Virus genome (UHGV): UHGV-0197950
DNA length: 10,010 bases
Direction: 5' to 3' (one strand)
DNA from: a virus
The translations under genes and the position numbers were made by a program. The notes below the pieces were generated by a model. The model saw nothing but the letters and a program-made list of their open reading frames with translations, ran no database searches and had not been told where the DNA came from. Every line of letters starts with the position of its first letter. Position 1 is the first letter of the stretch. Below, piece after piece: positions 1 through 10,010 of the stretch.

Positions 1-217
1 GCTTCGACATCCTTCGCAAATCTTATACAAGTAAGATGGAATAAACCGGGGTCAGAGAGGGGGCTGTTCAAAACCTCGCCAACTCTAGAAATACAATTTA
101 GAGAATTAGGGCGAGCCGTCAAGCGTTTGACAGGGGCCAGGGGGCAGGTATGAATCAAAAATTTGAAGCAGTTAACGCTATTGACAGGAATGTGACAGAT
201 GTCGCTGATGCCAACGA

Positions 218-332: not shown

Positions 333-404
333 CACGGTTTGCCCTTGTACGATGCACGGTGTAGTCAATGGTGTAGTTAATTTTGATGACCGGAAACGCG
401 AAAC

Positions 405-1643
405 ATGAGCAGCGCAATTCATAGACTTAGCGACACTCTTTTACGAAAATTAAGCGGATCACCAACCACAAAAAACGCCTTTTTTAATGACGGTGGCAAT
501 CTTAGCGTAAGACATTCCACCAGCGGCCTGTTAACCTGGTATTTCACTTACAGGGCCGGAACTGGTAGGCAGGTATCACCGGAACGTCTGAGACTGGGCA
601 ATTATCCCGATCTGAGTCTGAAAGCAGCCAGGGAAAAAGCAGCACAGTGTCGCGCCTGGCTGGCTGAGGGGAAAAATCCGCGCTATGAGCTTAATCGTGC
701 TGTACAGGATGCGTTAGCCCCCGTGACAGTTAAGGAAGCGCTCACTTACTGGCTTGAATCGTATGCAAAGGAAAAGCGCACTGACTACGAATCACTGAAA
801 AGCCGGATCAATAAACACATAATCAGCCAGATTGGCGCTTTGCCGTTGGAAAAATGCGAGCTACGGCACTGGTTGGCATGTTTTGACCAGATGGCAAAGC
901 GAAGCCCAGTATCTGCCGGATTTTTGCTACAGGTATGCAAACAGGCGCTTAAGTACTGCCGAAAACGACGATACGCAATCAGCAACGTTCTTGATGATAT
1001 GGTTGTCGGTGATGTGGGAAAAAAAGCAGAAGTGAGCGAGCGCGTACTAACAAATAAGGAGCTTGGGGAATTACTCCGCGCCCTGGATGACAAAATATTC
1101 CCGCCATACTACAGCGCCCTAATTCGCCTCCTGATTGTTTTTGGATGCCGTACCACTGAGCTAAGGCGCTCTGAGGTGCAGGAGTGGGATTTTAAAGAAA
1201 TGCTCTGGACAGTACCGAAGGAGCACAGCAAAACGAAGGTCGCCATATTCAGGCCAATACCGGAAAGCATTTTGCCGTTCGTCACGCAACTGGTGGAGCA
1301 GAACAGACACACAGGCTTATTGCTTGGTGAACTGAAAGGACAATCTTCGGTAGCAGAGTACGGAAGAACAGCGCACAGACGAATTAATCAAGCCCCCTGG
1401 ACGTTACACGATATCCGGCACACATTTACAACCATGCTGAACGATTTAGGCGTGGATCCGCATATTGTCGAGCAGCTTACAGCCCACCAGATGCCAGGGA
1501 TGCAACGAGTCTATAACCACTCCCGCTACCTTGATGCAAAACGTGATGCTCTTAATCTATGGGTAGACCGTCTCGAGCTTCTCCAGAACAATGATGAAAA
1601 AATCGTTGTTATGACCCCGCGAATTTACCCCCAAAATTCTTGA
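405..1643 (+). CDS. int: Site-specific tyrosine recombinase, P4-family integrase
   Basis: 412-aa ORF, ATG 405, TGA 1641-1643. C-terminal catalytic region has typical tyrosine-recombinase motifs (LHDIRHTFTT...HQMPGMQRVYNHSRYL) and the N-terminal region has the arm-binding/SAM-like organisation typical of P4-like integrases. First gene of the island next to a repeat-rich arm region. Confidence 0.9.
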   Translation: MSSAIHRLSDTLLRKLSGSPTTKNAFFNDGGNLSVRHSTSGLLTWYFTYRAGTGRQVSPERLRLGNYPDLSLKAAREKAAQCRAWLAEGKNPRYELNRAVQDALAPVTVKEALTYWLESYAKEKRTDYESLKSRINKHIISQIGALPLEKCELRHWLACFDQMAKRSPVSAGFLLQVCKQALKYCRKRRYAISNVLDDMVVGDVGKKAEVSERVLTNKELGELLRALDDKIFPPYYSALIRLLIVFGCRTTELRRSEVQEWDFKEMLWTVPKEHSKTKVAIFRPIPESILPFVTQLVEQNRHTGLLLGELKGQSSVAEYGRTAHRRINQAPWTLHDIRHTFTTMLNDLGVDPHIVEQLTAHQMPGMQRVYNHSRYLDAKRDALNLWVDRLELLQNNDEKIVVMTPRIYPQNS

Positions 1644-2062: not shown

Positions 2063-2272
2063 ATGCGTGAAATAAATGAAGATCGCGTAATCCGTGAGGA
2101 TGAATGTCGTAAGTTAACTGGAGTGTGTCGCACTACACGCTACGAACTGGAGAAAAAAGGGAGCTTTCCGTCTCGCCGTAATCTTGGTGGGCGTTCTGTA
2201 GGTTGGCTGCTGTCCGAGGTTATGGAATGGGTTAAAAGCCGGGATCGCATTAATTCAGGTAAGGCAGCGTAA
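2063..2272 (+). CDS. alpA: AlpA-family (Phage_AlpA / MerR-type HTH) transcriptional regulator
   Basis: ~69 aa from ATG 2063: MREINEDRVIREDECRKLTGVCRTTRYELEKKGSFPSRRNLGGRSVGWLLSEVMEWVKSR, matching the AlpA pattern (TG-SR-TIY...G-FP...LG-R-VGW...EV--W). The track ORF starts at 1976 (GTG) but that N-terminal extension lies in AT-rich DNA; the start is uncertain. Stop TAA 2270-2272. Confidence 0.75.
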   Translation: MREINEDRVIREDECRKLTGVCRTTRYELEKKGSFPSRRNLGGRSVGWLLSEVMEWVKSRDRINSGKAA

Positions 2273-2299
2273 AGGGGAGCATATGACATATAAAACAAA

Positions 2300-2319
2300 G
2301 GCGACCGGGGGCGGTCGCC
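2300..2319 (-). terminator. GC-rich perfect hairpin (GGCGACCG-GGGG-CGGTCGCC); possible terminator for leftward transcription from the repressor gene, or for alpA
   Basis: 8-bp perfect stem at 2300-2307 / 2312-2319. On the minus strand it is followed by a U-rich run (CTTTGTTTTA); on the plus strand it lies 28 nt after the alpA stop with no U-tract. Confidence 0.35.
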
Positions 2320-2623
2320 AATGGATACACACTAAACTTGAACGCATCACCAACAATGCCACATTTGCGGCTGGTGGGCAATGTGATCAGTCAGATTTGG
2401 TTCGTTCCAAGGTTTGCAACGAGAGCTTTTTCCTGTGCTCTTTAAGGAATTTCTCAAGAGCAAACGAACAAGGTGCGAATCTTTCTGATTCATGTTCATG
2501 CGCTATATTTTTGCGTCGTCTCTTACGAGTTGGTGATGGTGTTTTGGTTGATTCTGTGTCGCTCATGGTGCTGTCCTGTAAAGCAATGCGCCTGCGTTCC
2601 TCAAACTATGGCGCTGATAGTGG

Positions 2624-2929
2624 CTATTCCTGCTCTTTGACCTTGCGTCGCTGGAGTTCTTCACGCGCGACGGTGACGAGTTGCCCGATCTCCTCGGCGG
2701 CTTTGACTCCGATTTTTTCCACCTGCGCTAGGGCATCGAGCGAAGAAACCAGGAGGTTTTCTCCGCTTCCTTCTGCCTGGCGGCGGGCGATTTCACCGCG
2801 CATGGCGGTTACTATGAATCCGGCGTTGCTTTCACCGTCCAGTTTTACGGATTCCATGCCTTCAATAACATCATGCGGGATCCGAGCTGTCAGTGATTGT
2901 GATTTTGCGTTTTTTGAACCTGTAGCCAT
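2624..2929 (-). CDS. Putative ribbon-helix-helix-type DNA-binding repressor (candidate island immunity/maintenance regulator)
   Basis: 101 aa from ATG (minus) at 2929 with SD GAGAGGA 6 nt upstream: MATGSKNAKSQSLTARIPHDVIEGMESVKLDGESNAGFIVTAMRGEIARRQ..., i.e. an N-terminal beta-strand/helix pattern typical of RHH (Arc/CopG-like) proteins and a charged helical C-terminus. The track start at 2944 is a TTG. Divergent from a region with two palindromic operators. Family assignment is by pattern only. Confidence 0.55.
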   Translation of the reverse strand: MATGSKNAKSQSLTARIPHDVIEGMESVKLDGESNAGFIVTAMRGEIARRQAEGSGENLLVSSLDALAQVEKIGVKAAEEIGQLVTVAREELQRRKVKEQE

Positions 2930-2950
2930 CTGTAATCCTCTCAATGAAAG

Positions 2951-3027
2951 TGTAAGACAATATACACATAAAAAGTCTTACATAAAAGCATTGACATGTA
3001 AGCCACCTATAAATAAAGTTGCTTACA
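2951..3027. promoter_or_regulatory. Divergent control region with two palindromic operators (TGTAAGAC-N16-GTCTTACA and TGTAAGC-N17-GCTTACA) overlapping a TTGACA -35 element
   Basis: Read directly: 2951-2958 tgtaagac / 2975-2982 gtcttaca; 2997-2003 tgtaagc / 3021-3027 gcttaca; TTGACA at 2991-2996 with a -10-like TAAAGT 17 nt downstream (3014-3019) reading towards the + strand gene at 3126. Confidence 0.55.
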
Positions 3028-3125
3028 CCTTGTTAATGCAAGGTGCAGAAACGACGAAACCCCGCACTGTAGGAGCAGTAACGGGGCTTCTAACCACCAA
3101 CGATAGCAAGATTATCGAGGCAGCT

Positions 3126-3329
3126 ATGAGAAATCATACCATACACCCGCAAGGGCGGGACTCGTACAACCTGAATAAATACATCTGGCGTTTTATCGCC
3201 CTGAGCACCGCACAACCGCGCGTGATTCACATCGTGGCCACCAGCGAACAGGAAGCACGCCAGCAATCCCCGGCTGGCTGCGTGATGGTATTCGCCGCCC
3301 GTATTCGTCAGGGGGTGTGCCATGCCTGA
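3126..3329 (+). CDS. Small hypothetical protein (67 aa); first gene of the rightward operon; possibly an Icd-like cell-division-inhibitor-family protein
   Basis: ATG 3126 with GAGG SD 5 nt upstream, in frame with the end of the long 2283-3329 ORF: MRNHTIHPQGRDSYNLNKYIWRFIALSTAQPRVIHIVATSEQEARQQSPAGCVMVFAARIRQGVCHA. The Icd-like label is a recollection, not verified. Confidence 0.45.
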   Translation: MRNHTIHPQGRDSYNLNKYIWRFIALSTAQPRVIHIVATSEQEARQQSPAGCVMVFAARIRQGVCHA

Positions 3330-3648: not shown

Positions 3649-3948
3649 ATGAGAACGTATTTATCTGGCTTGACTGCCAGCGGTTATGCACACCCCCAAA
3701 TTATCCCCGGCGCTATTTATCTGGATAAGAACGGTAACAGAGTAACGGTAAAAGAACTGATGTTTGACCGTGTGTATTTTATCCGTGATGGCTATTCATT
3801 TCTTAGTTCGCTGAACGTGGAGATCTTTATTTGCAGATTCCGGCGGGAAATCCCGACTTCCAGAAATAACCATGTGTCACGTGTGGATGTGGATAAAAAA
3901 CTACAGGAACTGAAAAACATGATTGCCGCGTGGAGAGAGCAGAAATGA
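3649..3948 (+). CDS. Hypothetical protein (99 aa)
   Basis: ATG 3649 preceded by GGGGA. Its stop TGA 3946-3948 overlaps ATG 3945 of the replication gene (ATGA coupling). No motif recognised. Confidence 0.55.
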   Translation: MRTYLSGLTASGYAHPQIIPGAIYLDKNGNRVTVKELMFDRVYFIRDGYSFLSSLNVEIFICRFRREIPTSRNNHVSRVDVDKKLQELKNMIAAWREQK

Positions 3949-5762
3949 AAAAAGCGCCAAATTTAAAACACCAGCCGCGTGACAAAATGACGGAAGTCAT
4001 CATTTTTGCGGGTAGTGATGCGTGGGCACATGCGAAGCAGTGGCAGGAACAGGACGGGCGACTGGCTGGCGATAACGTGCCACCTGTCTGGCTTGGAGAG
4101 CAACAACTTGCCGAACTGGACAACCTGCAAATCGTACCGGACGGACGCTATCGCGTGCGTCTCTACCAGGCGGGGTTATTGCGTCCGGGGCTTGTTAATA
4201 CCATCGGGCAGAAACTGGCAGCGGCAGGTGTCAGGGATGCTGATTATTACCCTGAAGGAATGCACAGCCAGAAACGGGAGAACTGGCGCGAATATCTGGA
4301 ACGTGAACGGGCAGAGCAGGCGGAAAAGAAAAAGGTAGTTGAACTGCCTGTAAAGAAAAAAGAGCGGGTAAAAGACGATAACGCTTCATCACTGGCGCTT
4401 AACCAGATGGGAGCAAGTCAACGCGGCGAAGTTCTCCTGGCACATTATGGCGGTGAACTGGCGATTCATGCTGACTCTGACACTGTTCACCATTACAACG
4501 GCGTTGTATGGGAGCCAGTACAGGATAAAGAATTACAGCGAGCTATGGCACAGATTTTCATTGATGCGGAGATCAGCTATTCGCAGAACGCCATTAAATC
4601 GGCGGTCGATACCATGAAGTTAAGTTTGCCTGTTATGGGGAATACAGCCCGTAACCTGATTGGATTCAGTAACGGGGTATTTGATACCAGAACAGGTAAT
4701 TTTCGGGAGCATAACAAAAACGACTGGTTGTTAATTGCCAGTGAATTACCTTTCAGCCCACCAGCAGAGGGGGAAACGCTGGCAACACATGCGCCGAATT
4801 TCTGGAAGTGGTTACGCCGTTCGGTGGCTGAGAATGACCGCAAGGCGGATCGCGTACTGGCTGCATTATTCATGGTGCTGGCGAACCGGTACGACTGGCA
4901 GTTATTCATTGAGGTAACAGGTCCAGGGGGAAGTGGTAAAAGCGTGATGGCGGAGATTTGCACCATGCTGGCGGGTAAGGTTAATACAGTATCAGCGAGC
5001 ATGAAGGCGCTGGAAGATGCAAGGGAACGCGCGTTAGTGGTTGGCTTTTCGCTGATTATCATGCCGGATATGACCCGCTACGCTGGTGATGGGGCGGGAA
5101 TTAAGGCTATTACAGGCGGTGACAAGGTGGCAATCGACCCAAAACATAAAGCCCCATATTCAACGCGTATCCCGGCAGTAGTGCTGGCGGTTAACAATAA
5201 CGCTATGTCATTCAGTGACCGCAGTGGGGGGATCTCGCGACGTCGGGTGATATTCAATTTTTCGGAAGTTGTACCGGAGAACGAACGCGATTCAATGCTG
5301 GCGGAAAAAATAGAAGGTGAGCTGGCGGTAGTGATTCGTCATCTGCTTACACGGTTTGCTGACCAGGACGAAGCCAGACGCCTTTTATATGAGCAGCAGA
5401 AATCAGAAGAAGCACTCGCGATAAAGCGTGAAGGTGATTCGCTGGTGGACTTCTGCGGCTATCTCATGGCGTCGGTAATGTGTGATGGCCTGTTAGTGGG
5501 TAATGCTGAAATTGTGCCATTCAGCCCGCGCAGGTATCTCTATCATGCCTATCTGGCTTATATGAAGGCACATGGGTTTGGTAAACCTGTAACACTGACG
5601 CGCTTCGGTAAAGATATGCCGGGGGCAATGGCGGAATATGGCAGGGAGTATATGAAACGGAAAACGAAGCACGGTTTGCGTTCAAACGTGACACTGACGG
5701 AGGAATCAGAAGACTGGATGCCATCATGTGTATCGGTCACTAATGACGATAGCAAAAATTAA
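3945..5762 (+). CDS. Replication initiation protein, phage/plasmid primase-helicase family (P-loop NTPase; pri-rep-like)
   Basis: 605 aa from ATG 3945 (SD GGAGAGAG 3932-3939); the track start 3930 is a GTG. Walker A motif GPGGSGKS (EVTGPGGSGKSVMAE) and a downstream hydrophobic stretch plus acidic residues (LVVGFSLIIMPD) consistent with Walker B. Size and position immediately upstream of an iteron origin match satellite/PICI pri-rep genes. Confidence 0.8.
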   Translation: MKKAPNLKHQPRDKMTEVIIFAGSDAWAHAKQWQEQDGRLAGDNVPPVWLGEQQLAELDNLQIVPDGRYRVRLYQAGLLRPGLVNTIGQKLAAAGVRDADYYPEGMHSQKRENWREYLERERAEQAEKKKVVELPVKKKERVKDDNASSLALNQMGASQRGEVLLAHYGGELAIHADSDTVHHYNGVVWEPVQDKELQRAMAQIFIDAEISYSQNAIKSAVDTMKLSLPVMGNTARNLIGFSNGVFDTRTGNFREHNKNDWLLIASELPFSPPAEGETLATHAPNFWKWLRRSVAENDRKADRVLAALFMVLANRYDWQLFIEVTGPGGSGKSVMAEICTMLAGKVNTVSASMKALEDARERALVVGFSLIIMPDMTRYAGDGAGIKAITGGDKVAIDPKHKAPYSTRIPAVVLAVNNNAMSFSDRSGGISRRRVIFNFSEVVPENERDSMLAEKIEGELAVVIRHLLTRFADQDEARRLLYEQQKSEEALAIKREGDSLVDFCGYLMASVMCDGLLVGNAEIVPFSPRRYLYHAYLAYMKAHGFGKPVTLTRFGKDMPGAMAEYGREYMKRKTKHGLRSNVTLTEESEDWMPSCVSVTNDDSKN

Positions 5763-5776
5763 ACTTATGGAATAAC

Positions 5777-6006
5777 TGTTCACCACTGTTCACCCTGTCA
5801 TAAATATTTTTTATATCAGTATATTATAGGGTGAACAGTTATTTATGAACTGTTCACCAAACTATTCACTGTTCACCTTTTTGATTGTTTATTGAGCTTC
5901 AAGGGTGAACAGTGGTGAACAGTTGGTGAATAGTTTTTGTGAAACTGTTCACCCCTTAACATTATGAATTAAAAGATAAAATATCAAAAGGTGAACAGGT
6001 GAAGGG
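5777..6006. repeat. Iteron array / putative replication origin: about 10 copies of TGTTCACC (both orientations) flanking an AT-rich stretch
   Basis: TGTTCACC at 5777, 5787, 5851, 5870, 5946; GGTGAACA at 5830, 5904, 5914, 5990; degenerate copies at 5861, 5925, 5998; AT-rich 5795-5828. Lies immediately after the replication gene stop (5762). Confidence 0.75.
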
Positions 6007-6049
6007 TTAAAACGCAAAAATTTTAATTTACTGCTGTGAGATAAAGCCT

Positions 6050-6295
6050 ATGACAGCGAAGCACATAAAAAAATCACAATCGCACGCCCTTGATTTGACG
6101 GAACACTGGTTAAGGGTGTCGATAAAAATCATCGACCGCAACGCCGGGGAAGGATATGCGAAAGCACATCCCGAACTGATTAGCGCATTCATGACAACGG
6201 CAGCTGCAAACTTTGCCACGCTGACAGAACGGGAGATTGCCGAAGCGGAACAGGTGACAACCATCAACGTTAAAACCGGAGAGCAGACAGCATGA
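6050..6295 (+). CDS. Hypothetical protein (81 aa), translationally coupled to ssb
   Basis: ATG 6050; stop TGA 6293-6295 overlaps ssb ATG 6292 (ATGA). No motif recognised. Confidence 0.5.
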   Translation: MTAKHIKKSQSHALDLTEHWLRVSIKIIDRNAGEGYAKAHPELISAFMTTAAANFATLTEREIAEAEQVTTINVKTGEQTA

Positions 6296-6714
6296 CAGCA
6301 CAGATAGCGGCTTACGGACGGCTGGTGGCTGATCCGCAGTTAAAGACCACCAGCAAGGGTACACAAATGGCGATGGCTAGTATGGCGGTCCCCCTTCCGT
6401 GCAGCCAGGCAGATGACGGAACGGCGATGATGTGGTTATCCGTCCTGGCGTTTGGCAGACAGGCCGACGCACTGGCAAAACACCACAAAGGCGAACTGGT
6501 GAGCGTGGCGGGTAACATGCAGGTAAGCCAGTGGACAGGCCAGAACGGCGAAACGCGGCAGGGCTGGCAGGTTATCGCAGACAGCGTGATCAGTGCGCGA
6601 ACAGCGCGACCGGGCGGCAAAAAAGGCCAGCAGGGGCAGGCCACTGACGCACTGAACAGGGCAAAACAACAGTCGGGGAATGATGATCCGTACGGCGATA
6701 ATATACCGTTTTAA
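6292..6714 (+). CDS. ssb: Single-stranded DNA-binding protein (SSB-like, OB-fold) with acidic C-terminal tip ...DDPYGDNIPF
   Basis: 140 aa; N-terminal region follows the E. coli SSB pattern (IAAYGRLVADPQLKTTSKG... / WLSVLAFGRQADALAKHHKGELVSVAGNMQVSQWTGQNGETRQGWQVIADSV), a Gly/Gln-rich linker, and a C-terminal IPF tail resembling SSB DDDIPF. Confidence 0.8.
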   Translation: MTAQIAAYGRLVADPQLKTTSKGTQMAMASMAVPLPCSQADDGTAMMWLSVLAFGRQADALAKHHKGELVSVAGNMQVSQWTGQNGETRQGWQVIADSVISARTARPGGKKGQQGQATDALNRAKQQSGNDDPYGDNIPF

Positions 6715-6731: not shown

Positions 6732-6760
6732 ATGCCGGAAAAAAATAGATTTTCCGGCAT
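6732..6760. terminator. Perfect 11-bp-stem hairpin (ATGCCGGAAAA-N7-TTTTCCGGCAT) between the replication and head modules; possible bidirectional terminator or insulator
   Basis: Arms 6732-6742 and 6750-6760 are exact reverse complements; a T-rich run follows on the minus-strand side (CTTTTTGTTTG); 18 nt after the ssb stop. Confidence 0.4.
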
Positions 6761-6925
6761 GCTACATAAATCCCGACCAAAGGAAGTAAATACATTAACA
6801 CGAATTATCAGCACTGAAGTTGTCGCGGCATATTTTATACAACATTGCACTTGGTTGCATGTATTCGCATAGCAGACATCGGTAATAGAATATATTCACA
6901 ATTATTTGTAATGAATGTAAAGAGG

Positions 6926-8919: not shown

Positions 8920-9462
8920 ATGAAATCGCACCTGATGAACAAAAAAACCATGGCGCAAAGCTGCCGGGTAAGTGCTACAGCATTCGACAAGTGGGGAGTG
9001 ACTCCCGTTGAACGTAAAGGCCGTGAGGCGTTTTATGATGTTGCCAGCGTGATAGACAATAGGGTTAACAATGCAATTAGCCAGCTTACAAACGACAAAG
9101 GCGAGATTGATGATGATGAACTCTTACGAGTCAGGATCAGATTACTGACAGCACAGGCGGAGGCGCAGGAACTTAAAAACGAGCGCGATCGCGGTGACGT
9201 GATTGATACAGAGTTTTGCATGTACGCGCTTTCAAAACTGGCGAGTCAGATTTCATCAATCATGGACAGCCTCCCGCTTACTATGCAAAGGAGCTTCCCA
9301 CAGATGACCCCCGTCATGCTGGATGGCCTGAAAAAAGAAGTTGTCAGAGCCTGTAACGCATGCACAAAACTTGATGAAAACATCCCGCGAATGCTGTCCG
9401 ATTATCTGATGGAAACTACCGGAAATGTGCCTGATAAGTTTCAGCCGGATAAAGACAAGTAA
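8920..9462 (+). CDS. Terminase small subunit, lambda Nu1-like
   Basis: Product aligns by eye with lambda Nu1: N-terminus ...NKKTMAQSCRVSATAFDKWGVTPVERKGREAFYDVASVI versus NKKQLADIFGASIRTIQNWQEQGMPVLRGGGKGNEVLYDSAAVI; C-terminal part RLLTAQAEAQELKNERDRGDVIDTEFCMYALSKLASQISSIMDSLPLTMQRSFPQ versus RLTRAQADAQELKNARDSAEVVETAFCTFVLSRIAGEIASILDGLPLSVQRRFPE. Start ambiguous (TTG 8917, ATG 8920, ATG 8935). No TerL gene follows. Confidence 0.85.
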   Translation: MKSHLMNKKTMAQSCRVSATAFDKWGVTPVERKGREAFYDVASVIDNRVNNAISQLTNDKGEIDDDELLRVRIRLLTAQAEAQELKNERDRGDVIDTEFCMYALSKLASQISSIMDSLPLTMQRSFPQMTPVMLDGLKKEVVRACNACTKLDENIPRMLSDYLMETTGNVPDKFQPDKDK

Positions 9463-9698: not shown

Positions 9699-10010
9699 AT
9701 GGAGGCCATGACCATGACCATGACCATGACCGAGACCGAAGCGCTCGGGATAATCCGCAGTATTACCGGAATCAGCCAGCAGGCTGGCGAACAGGAGGCC
9801 ACGCAGCCGGACAGCGTGATAGCCGAAAATTACGCGCGTGTTGTTGCTGAGGTGATGCGCCGTGATGGTATTGAGCTTAACGGCGTGGATATGCGCAACA
9901 TACGAACCAGAGTCCTTGAGTTGCTGGCATACCGTCGCCGTTCTCAACAACGGAGGGAGAGCGCGAAAAGTACTTACCAGTGGAAGAAGCCGGAACGACT
10001 GCGGCGGTAA
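9699..10010 (+). CDS. Hypothetical protein (~103 aa) beginning in a hexanucleotide repeat (MEAMTMTMTMTETE...)
   Basis: ORF ends TAA 10008-10010. Candidate starts are ATG 9699 (SD AAGGAGGA 9679-9686) or ATG 9714 (SD GGAGG 9701-9705). The track start 9624 lies in probable non-coding DNA. No confident family assignment. Confidence 0.5.
   Translation: MEAMTMTMTMTETEALGIIRSITGISQQAGEQEATQPDSVIAENYARVVAEVMRRDGIELNGVDMRNIRTRVLELLAYRRRSQQRRESAKSTYQWKKPERLRR
9707..9730 (+). repeat. (CATGAC)4 hexanucleotide tandem repeat, with a degenerate fifth unit to 9736, at the 5' end of the last gene
   Basis: Read directly: catgac x4 at 9707-9730 then cgagac; encodes MT dipeptide repeats and provides four in-frame ATG codons. 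Confidence 0.7.

Follow-up and report, generated by a model that had tools for sequence, protein, structure and literature searches.

The model island among Gram-negative PICIs is EcCICFT073, whose rep gene and ori suffice for plasmid maintenance in E. coli DH5alpha (PMC6092414). Origins of Gram-negative PICIs comprise iterons and AT-rich DNA and are located directly 3' of the initiator gene (PMC6092414). The paper on EcCICFT073 mentions SSB 0 times (PMC6092414), and a 2023 comparative paper that sorted the genes of Gram-negative PICIs into categories entered 'Primase, SSB and DUF5906' under Replication (PMC10111431). Our literature search found category-level mentions only and no experimental work on any PICI SSB.

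In E. coli SSB, the aromatic residues W40, W54, F60, and W88 stack with ssDNA, and the C-terminal tip recruits Pol III chi, PriA, DnaG, RecQ, and other proteins. Conjugative plasmids carry SSBs of the F Ssb type, which are close to the host SSB and sited in the plasmid leading region. The SSB of the temperate phage 80alpha has an acidic C-terminal tail used in protein-protein contacts and cooperates with the recombinase Sak (PMC11846896).

The DNA analysed here, hereafter the window, is a stretch of 10,010 nucleotides of the virus genome UHGV-0197950 and carries a pair of overlapping genes, ORF81 and ssb. The ssb gene as such is already annotated: it has a RefSeq name, occurs in the model PICI, and has been listed among PICI replication genes in a published comparison. 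The additions made by the present analysis are modest, namely, a satellite-specific clade of SSBs with a variable tip, the placement of ORF81 in a large family with a predicted helical-hairpin fold, and the indication that ORF81 tracks the initiator.

The island and its replication module

Judged by gene content and order, the window is an EcCICFT073-type Gram-negative PICI of ~10.2 kb. In E. coli CFS3313 this integrase-bearing element is flanked by yljB/cspD and clpS, in agreement with the initial annotation, which regarded the SSB as island-encoded. The 1-kb region used for DNA searches was 99.9% identical to chromosomal DNA of at least ten complete E. coli genomes, and some part of it was matched in 1,686 of 5,426 complete E. 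coli genomes, in up to six places per genome.

The 5' part of the island contains, in order, the genes of an integrase, an HTH/AlpA-like regulator, YlcI/YnfO (on the opposite strand), an Icd-like protein, a hypothetical protein, and a DUF4222 protein. They are followed by the gene of a 'DNA primase family protein' (pri), ORF81, and the genes of SSB, the major capsid protein, and the head decoration protein, and then by a second AlpA-like HTH gene, the gene of the terminase small subunit (Nu1-like), and a final hypothetical gene (Table 1). This is the layout of a PICI, with the integrase at one end, an AlpA-type regulator, pri/rep, and almost all genes in one direction; the late-gene homologues are capsid E, decoration D, and Nu1-like TerS. 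Window positions 367-381 hold one copy of a 15-bp direct repeat, AATGGTGTAGTTAAT, whose second copy lies 10.2 kb away, at positions 18850-18864 of locus L001, ~600 bp past the window end; the repeat is a candidate att core. Its left copy sits in a 12-nt tandem duplication (window 358-381). No Rfam families or tRNAs were detected in the window.

The same gene pair is found in EcCICFT073 (CFT073 C_RS06990/C_RS06995, NC_004431.1 1384284-1384948), where a small ORF and an SSB gene also overlap by 4 nt. Both islands share the order DUF4222, pri, an ori gap of ~290 bp, small ORF, SSB, and capsid and decoration genes. The product of the small ORF of EcCICFT073 (85 aa) and ORF81 share 88% identity; between the SSB of EcCICFT073 (136 aa) and the one studied here identity is 69%, the ends being GDDIPF and GDNIPF, respectively. 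EcCICFT073 differs in a shorter and dissimilar SSB linker, in the presence of a PerC gene between ssb and the capsid gene, and in its site beside roxA and phoQ vs. yljB and clpS, correspondingly.

Table 1. Positions of the main features of the window and of the domains of the SSB protein
Feature	Position	Strand	Remarks
int	405-1643	+	
HTH/AlpA-like regulator	2063-2272	+	
YlcI/YnfO	2624-2929	-	RefSeq annotation
Icd-like	3126-3329		RefSeq annotation
pri/rep initiator-helicase	3945-5762	+	D5_N, DUF5906 (SF3 helicase), Pox_D5; Pfam and PHROG matches
Island replication origin	5774-6008		~11 iterons GGTGAACAG(T) in both orientations around AT-rich DNA
ORF81	6050-6295	+	ATG start, 81 aa; RefSeq WP_000125504.1 (hypothetical), exactly matching coordinates
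GGAGAG Shine-Dalgarno	6278-6283	+	eight bases 5' of the ssb start overlap
ATGA overlap	6292-6295	+	ORF81 stop (TGA) with ssb start (ATG); from the sequence
ssb	6292-6714	+	ATG start, 140 aa; RefSeq WP_000126634.1 (single-stranded DNA-binding protein), exactly matching coordinates
OB domain	SSB residues ~1-104		
K/R/Q/G-rich linker	SSB residues ~105-128		
Acidic tip	SSB residues 131-140		DDPYGDNIPF
Hairpin with 11-bp stem	6732-6760		ATGCCGGAAAA...TTTTCCGGCAT; 18 nt past the ssb stop; T-run on the minus-strand side only
Promoter-like site	6864-6891		ahead of the capsid gene; promoter scan

The pri product (610 aa) is named 'DNA primase family protein' in RefSeq, and its match to TIGR01613 was below the cut-off. 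No primase catalytic domain was found in it with Pfam and TIGRFAM/NCBIfam profiles, and priming therefore probably relies on host DnaG. Residues 1-140 of the protein match only phrog_2850, a family without known function. The origin, whose iterons were called from repeat families D2 and D3, inverted pairs, and tandem arrays, fills the gap of ~290 bp between pri and ORF81, where GC falls to 0.38; its position directly after pri matches the organisation described for Gram-negative PICIs.

A scan revealed no sigma-70-like promoter between pri and ORF81 and no promoter-like or plus-strand terminator-like site between pri and ssb. The hairpin behind ssb probably ends the transcript of the replication module. 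Since no such signals occur from pri to ssb, and the hairpin and the next promoter-like site both follow ssb, ORF81 and ssb appear to be the tail of the replication transcript.

Two features outside the module concern annotation. A 348-aa plus-strand ORF at positions 2283-3329 of the mechanical list overlaps both YlcI/YnfO and the Icd-like gene and is probably spurious. A perfect (CCATGA)x4.3 repeat at positions 9706-9731 spans the annotated start (9726) of the last island gene (9726-10010), which gives this gene a series of Met-Thr codons in frame and several potential start sites.

The SSB protein and its C-terminal tip

Both genes of the pair are real genes, and chance ORFs are ruled out. 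Pairwise dN/dS values (NG86) of 0.28 for ORF81 and 0.17 for SSB point to purifying selection, which together with the conservation of both genes also rules out the reading of the pair as decaying remnants. The ORF listing and the sequence reproduced the 81-aa ORF, the 140-aa SSB gene coupled to it by the overlap, and the SSB tail as they had been described initially; the translation of the 140-aa ORF ends in ...GNDDPYGDNIPF.

The SSB matched Pfam PF00436 with 57.4 bits (cut-off 26; E 1.7e-15; residues 5-99), TIGR00621 ssb with 59.3 bits (cut-off 53.95), and the phrog_44 SSB family with an E-value of 1.7e-38. A PDB search yielded 27 distinct solved SSB chains, E. coli SSB among them. The earlier identification of the product as an OB-fold SSB is thus confirmed by profile matches above the cut-offs.

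In common with E. coli SSB, the island protein has an OB fold, the equivalents of W54, F60, and W88, and a flexible linker followed by an acidic tip ending in I-P-F. Its OB domain is 26% identical to that of E. coli SSB (178 aa). MAFFT alignment showed at least 96% conservation of the W54, F60, and W88 equivalents across the clade; the equivalent of W40 is a conserved Cys, aligned in a gapped loop region, and that of His55 is Leu in the island SSB. Because of the W40 to Cys and His55 to Leu replacements, the DNA-binding mode and oligomeric state of the island SSB may differ from those of its E. coli counterpart. The linker is short, ~25-30 residues with Lys and Arg, in contrast to the Gly/Gln/Pro-rich linker of ~60 residues in E. 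coli SSB, and the D-N-I-P-F tip is less acidic, with only three acidic residues in the last ten.

A database search at E<=1e-5 returned 757 relatives of the SSB, and those with a named source, which were nearly all labelled SSB, came from Escherichia, Shigella, Salmonella, and Citrobacter. IPF formed the terminus in 107 of the 120 best cluster representatives, preceded by N, G, D, E, or S. Among the 135 unique SSB genes from the fetched loci, the endings IPF (84), DDF (19), ISF (6), and IPL (6) were recorded. In the same 135 genes, the mean frequency of the top residue was 0.84 in the OB domain vs. 0.63 in the linker, and Asp136, at position -5 of SSB, was 93% conserved. This pattern of conservation shows the acidic C-terminal tip of the island SSB to be under selection; the tip usually ends in Phe and is not uniform. 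More distant members of the clade (59-77% identity), encoded directly 3' of 700-940-aa primase-helicases in other satellites, end in PPYDDDF, DDSIPL, or DDVPF. The acidic tail ending in IPF, on which the initial annotation laid emphasis, is therefore conserved in relatives while the linker varies, but DDDF, SIPL, and ISF variants also exist within the clade, and with them binding to the host interactome is not guaranteed clade-wide. The tip variants suggest that partner specificity may differ among subclades of island SSBs. Tips of the type ...DDISF were seen among the natural variants (relatives P0121-P0240, loci L176-L255); the Pro-to-Ser change in them is that of the E. coli ssb-113 mutation.

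No true phage relative of the SSB with more than 30% identity was present among 50,697 phage records, and the DNA of the 1-kb region had no megablast match in INPHARED. Only 52 plasmid records matched the SSB; a few inspected ones carry the same SSB beside a hypothetical gene. By these comparisons, the lineage is satellite-associated and distinct from host, phage, and conjugative-plasmid SSBs. Assignment to the conjugative-plasmid (F Ssb) type was ruled out by the 26% identity to host SSB and by the location in a chromosomal satellite island. The SSBs of conjugative plasmids (F Ssb) and temperate phages (80alpha) resemble the island SSB in being carried by mobile elements and in retaining a functional acidic tail at the C terminus; in contrast to them, the island clade adjoins an SF3 helicase-initiator and its iteron origin.

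Family and predicted fold of ORF81

ORF81 matched phrog_1231, a family of unknown function, with an E-value of 6e-49, residues 2-80 being aligned with positions 4-82 of the 83 profile positions. The same profile was matched by all 29 diverse relatives tested. The 164 close relatives of ORF81 were all found in Enterobacteriaceae, and a profile search against 1.84 billion cluster representatives (E<=1e-3) expanded the family to at least 696 clusters at 50% identity. Most members are 60-140 aa long among the 150 matches listed. Aligned members have the common core xAxxTAxxYLxxAIxxIDxxFGxGYAKxHPELIxAFMxTAAxDF, which includes the conserved turn GxGYAKxHPELIxAFMxTAA. The family is unannotated, lacks Pfam and NCBIfam models, and has neither a solved nor a matching structure: ORF81 had no Pfam, NCBIfam, or PADLOC matches, nor were there any among the 29 diverse relatives, no PDB sequence relative was found by single sequence or with a 126-sequence profile, and no tblastn match of ORF81 occurred in INPHARED.

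With 18 close homologues as input, AlphaFold2 yielded only a poor model (pLDDT 61.7). With 126 diverse sequences, it gave a pLDDT of 83.6 (>90 in the core) and helices at residues 3-32, 36-39, and 41-75, so ORF81 is predicted to fold as a helical hairpin. A Foldseek search of this model against PDB gave nothing significant (best E 1.5), and against BFVD only uncharacterised phage proteins with E >= 0.04. A bare helical hairpin is not diagnostic of function.

Proposed role of the gene pair in island replication

The reading that we favour, and hold to be moderately probable, is that the pair is the distal part of a PICI replication module composed of pri, the iteron ori, ORF81, and ssb, in which the SSB would be an accessory factor raising efficiency. 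Because rep and ori of EcCICFT073 suffice on a plasmid, the SSB is most likely accessory and dispensable at least in that setting. Upon induction by a helper phage, the SF3 helicase-initiator would open the adjacent iteron origin, whose exposed single strands would be coated by the island SSB, a product of the same transcript as the initiator; extra SSB would be supplied in this way when helper and island replication together raise demand. The ...D-x-I-P-F tip probably docks the host proteins that recognise the tip of E. coli SSB (Pol III chi, DnaG, PriA, and others), which would be of importance given that the island initiator has no detectable primase domain. ORF81, which is translationally coupled to whichever gene comes next, would act with the initiator or the origin. 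The initial suggestion that the SSB could compete with or substitute for host SSB is plausible as a hypothesis. If the tip does recruit the host replisome to a helicase-only initiator, this would explain priming in these minimal replicons, and recruitment of replisome parts would also have a bearing on defence systems sensing foreign SSBs. The practical interest lies in what a satellite gains from an SSB of its own and in the role of the phrog_1231 protein; both questions could be answered quickly by EcCICFT073 genetics.

The overlap of stop and start codons could also be explained if ORF81 were a dedicated partner of the SSB (chaperone, loader, or regulator). The same 4-nt overlap with an SSB gene was present in 143 of 163 loci, which were retrieved mainly through ORF81, as well as in EcCICFT073; in three more loci the SSB gene lay 36-318 nt downstream, and one database entry (P0121) is a natural in-frame ORF81-SSB fusion. 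However, in ~13 loci an unrelated 101-aa gene (MSEPKFGEKFYKHNG...) was coupled to ORF81 by ATGA in the same manner, and the Shigella locus L002 had this gene after ORF81 and no SSB at all. Of the 80 loci retrieved via a divergent SSB, 46 had no ORF81-family ORF within 4 kb, and in L173 the ORF81 relative is 4 kb away from the SSB gene, which comes after that of a DUF927 primase. Distant ORF81 relatives were located after AlpA, DUF5906 helicase, or CI-like repressor genes or in a phage contig, with no SSB neighbour; integrase/AlpA/primase-helicase islands without SSB are among these locations. Either gene thus occurs without the other, which rules out ORF81 as an obligate SSB partner and leaves the dedicated-partner explanation unlikely. 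Divergence of ORF81 followed that of pri (Spearman rho 0.80) more closely than that of SSB (0.37) in 64 unique pri/ORF81/SSB combinations, although it is ssb that ORF81 overlaps; this is a crude distance correlation in which locus pairs are non-independent and loci were chosen by similarity. Correspondingly, ORF81 was 98-99% identical and SSB 69% in L024, L057, and L066; the opposite mosaic was found in L036 and L043, where pri was 87%, ORF81 97%, and SSB 97% identical, and ORF81 travels with SSB. As ORF81 divergence tracks pri, we infer action with the initiator or origin and not as a dedicated SSB partner. In our reading, ORF81 would belong with pri and ori, and the ORF81/ssb boundary would be a frequent recombination joint. 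The more specific proposal, that ORF81 is an initiator-specific replication accessory and the first characterisable member of a widespread family found in satellites and temperate phages across Proteobacteria, with the SSB clade tuned to that replisome, is tentative and rather doubtful; possible roles within it are an adaptor between the SF3 initiator and host priming or loading, or a licensing factor of the iteron origin. Of what had been said initially about the upstream 81-aa gene, its translational coupling and the absence of a named function hold, but it is no orphan, being a member of phrog_1231, and it has no SSB-specific tie.

Other explanations place the action of the SSB outside island replication. 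The island SSB might mainly compete with host SSB, by titration of tip-binding proteins or in mixed tetramers, and thereby slow helper or host replication to the benefit of the island. In favour of this, lambdoid helpers depend on host SSB, and the conserved tip of the island SSB is similar to that of the host. Interference of PICIs with helper phages is known (PMC6092414), but the interference of EcCICFT073 examined so far concerns the capsid, decoration, and packaging region (PMC6092414), whereas ssb lies in the replication module and not among interference or packaging genes. Moreover, mixed tetramers are unlikely in view of the low identity of the OB domain to that of host SSB (26%) and the different residue at the His55 position; overall, interference seems rather unlikely to us, slightly less so than the dedicated-partner explanation. 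Alternatively, the SSB might aid annealing and recombination proteins of the helper or host in forming concatemers for cos packaging into full-size heads. The cooperation of the 80alpha SSB tail with Sak (PMC11846896) and the packaging of EcCICFT073 as multimers in phage-size heads (PMC6092414, PMC10111431) would agree with this, but the island has no recombinase gene and the SSB adjoins pri and ori in every lineage examined, and we regard a recombination role as improbable, on a par with the dedicated partnership. The least probable explanation is an immune role, in which a non-host SSB serves as a decoy or trigger for SSB-sensing defences (Retron-Eco8, AbpAB, Hna, DRT10). Satellites often carry defence functions, and phage SSBs are reported to trigger several defence systems (PMC13402713, PMC10732053, PMC13381803); yet neither SSB, ORF81, nor their neighbours had a PADLOC match, ssb belongs to the conserved replication module, outside the variable accessory region, and the idea is purely circumstantial.

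Several minor observations relate to single loci and genes. The 101-aa gene coupled to ORF81 (MSEPKFGEKFYKHNGRITIL...; L002 8207-8512 and ~12 other loci) either replaces SSB or sits between ORF81 and SSB, and it had no PADLOC match. Window positions 8920-9462 encode a small terminase of the Nu1 family (PF07471, phrog_57), and the island contains no large terminase subunit; this Nu1-like protein may be the Rpp-type packaging-redirection protein of EcCICFT073-like PICIs. In the SSB relative P0141 (202 aa), the tip is replaced by ~65 residues matching the nuclease domain of a terminase large subunit (PF20441), which may represent a PICI junction inside the terminase gene of a helper or else an artefact of assembly or recombination.
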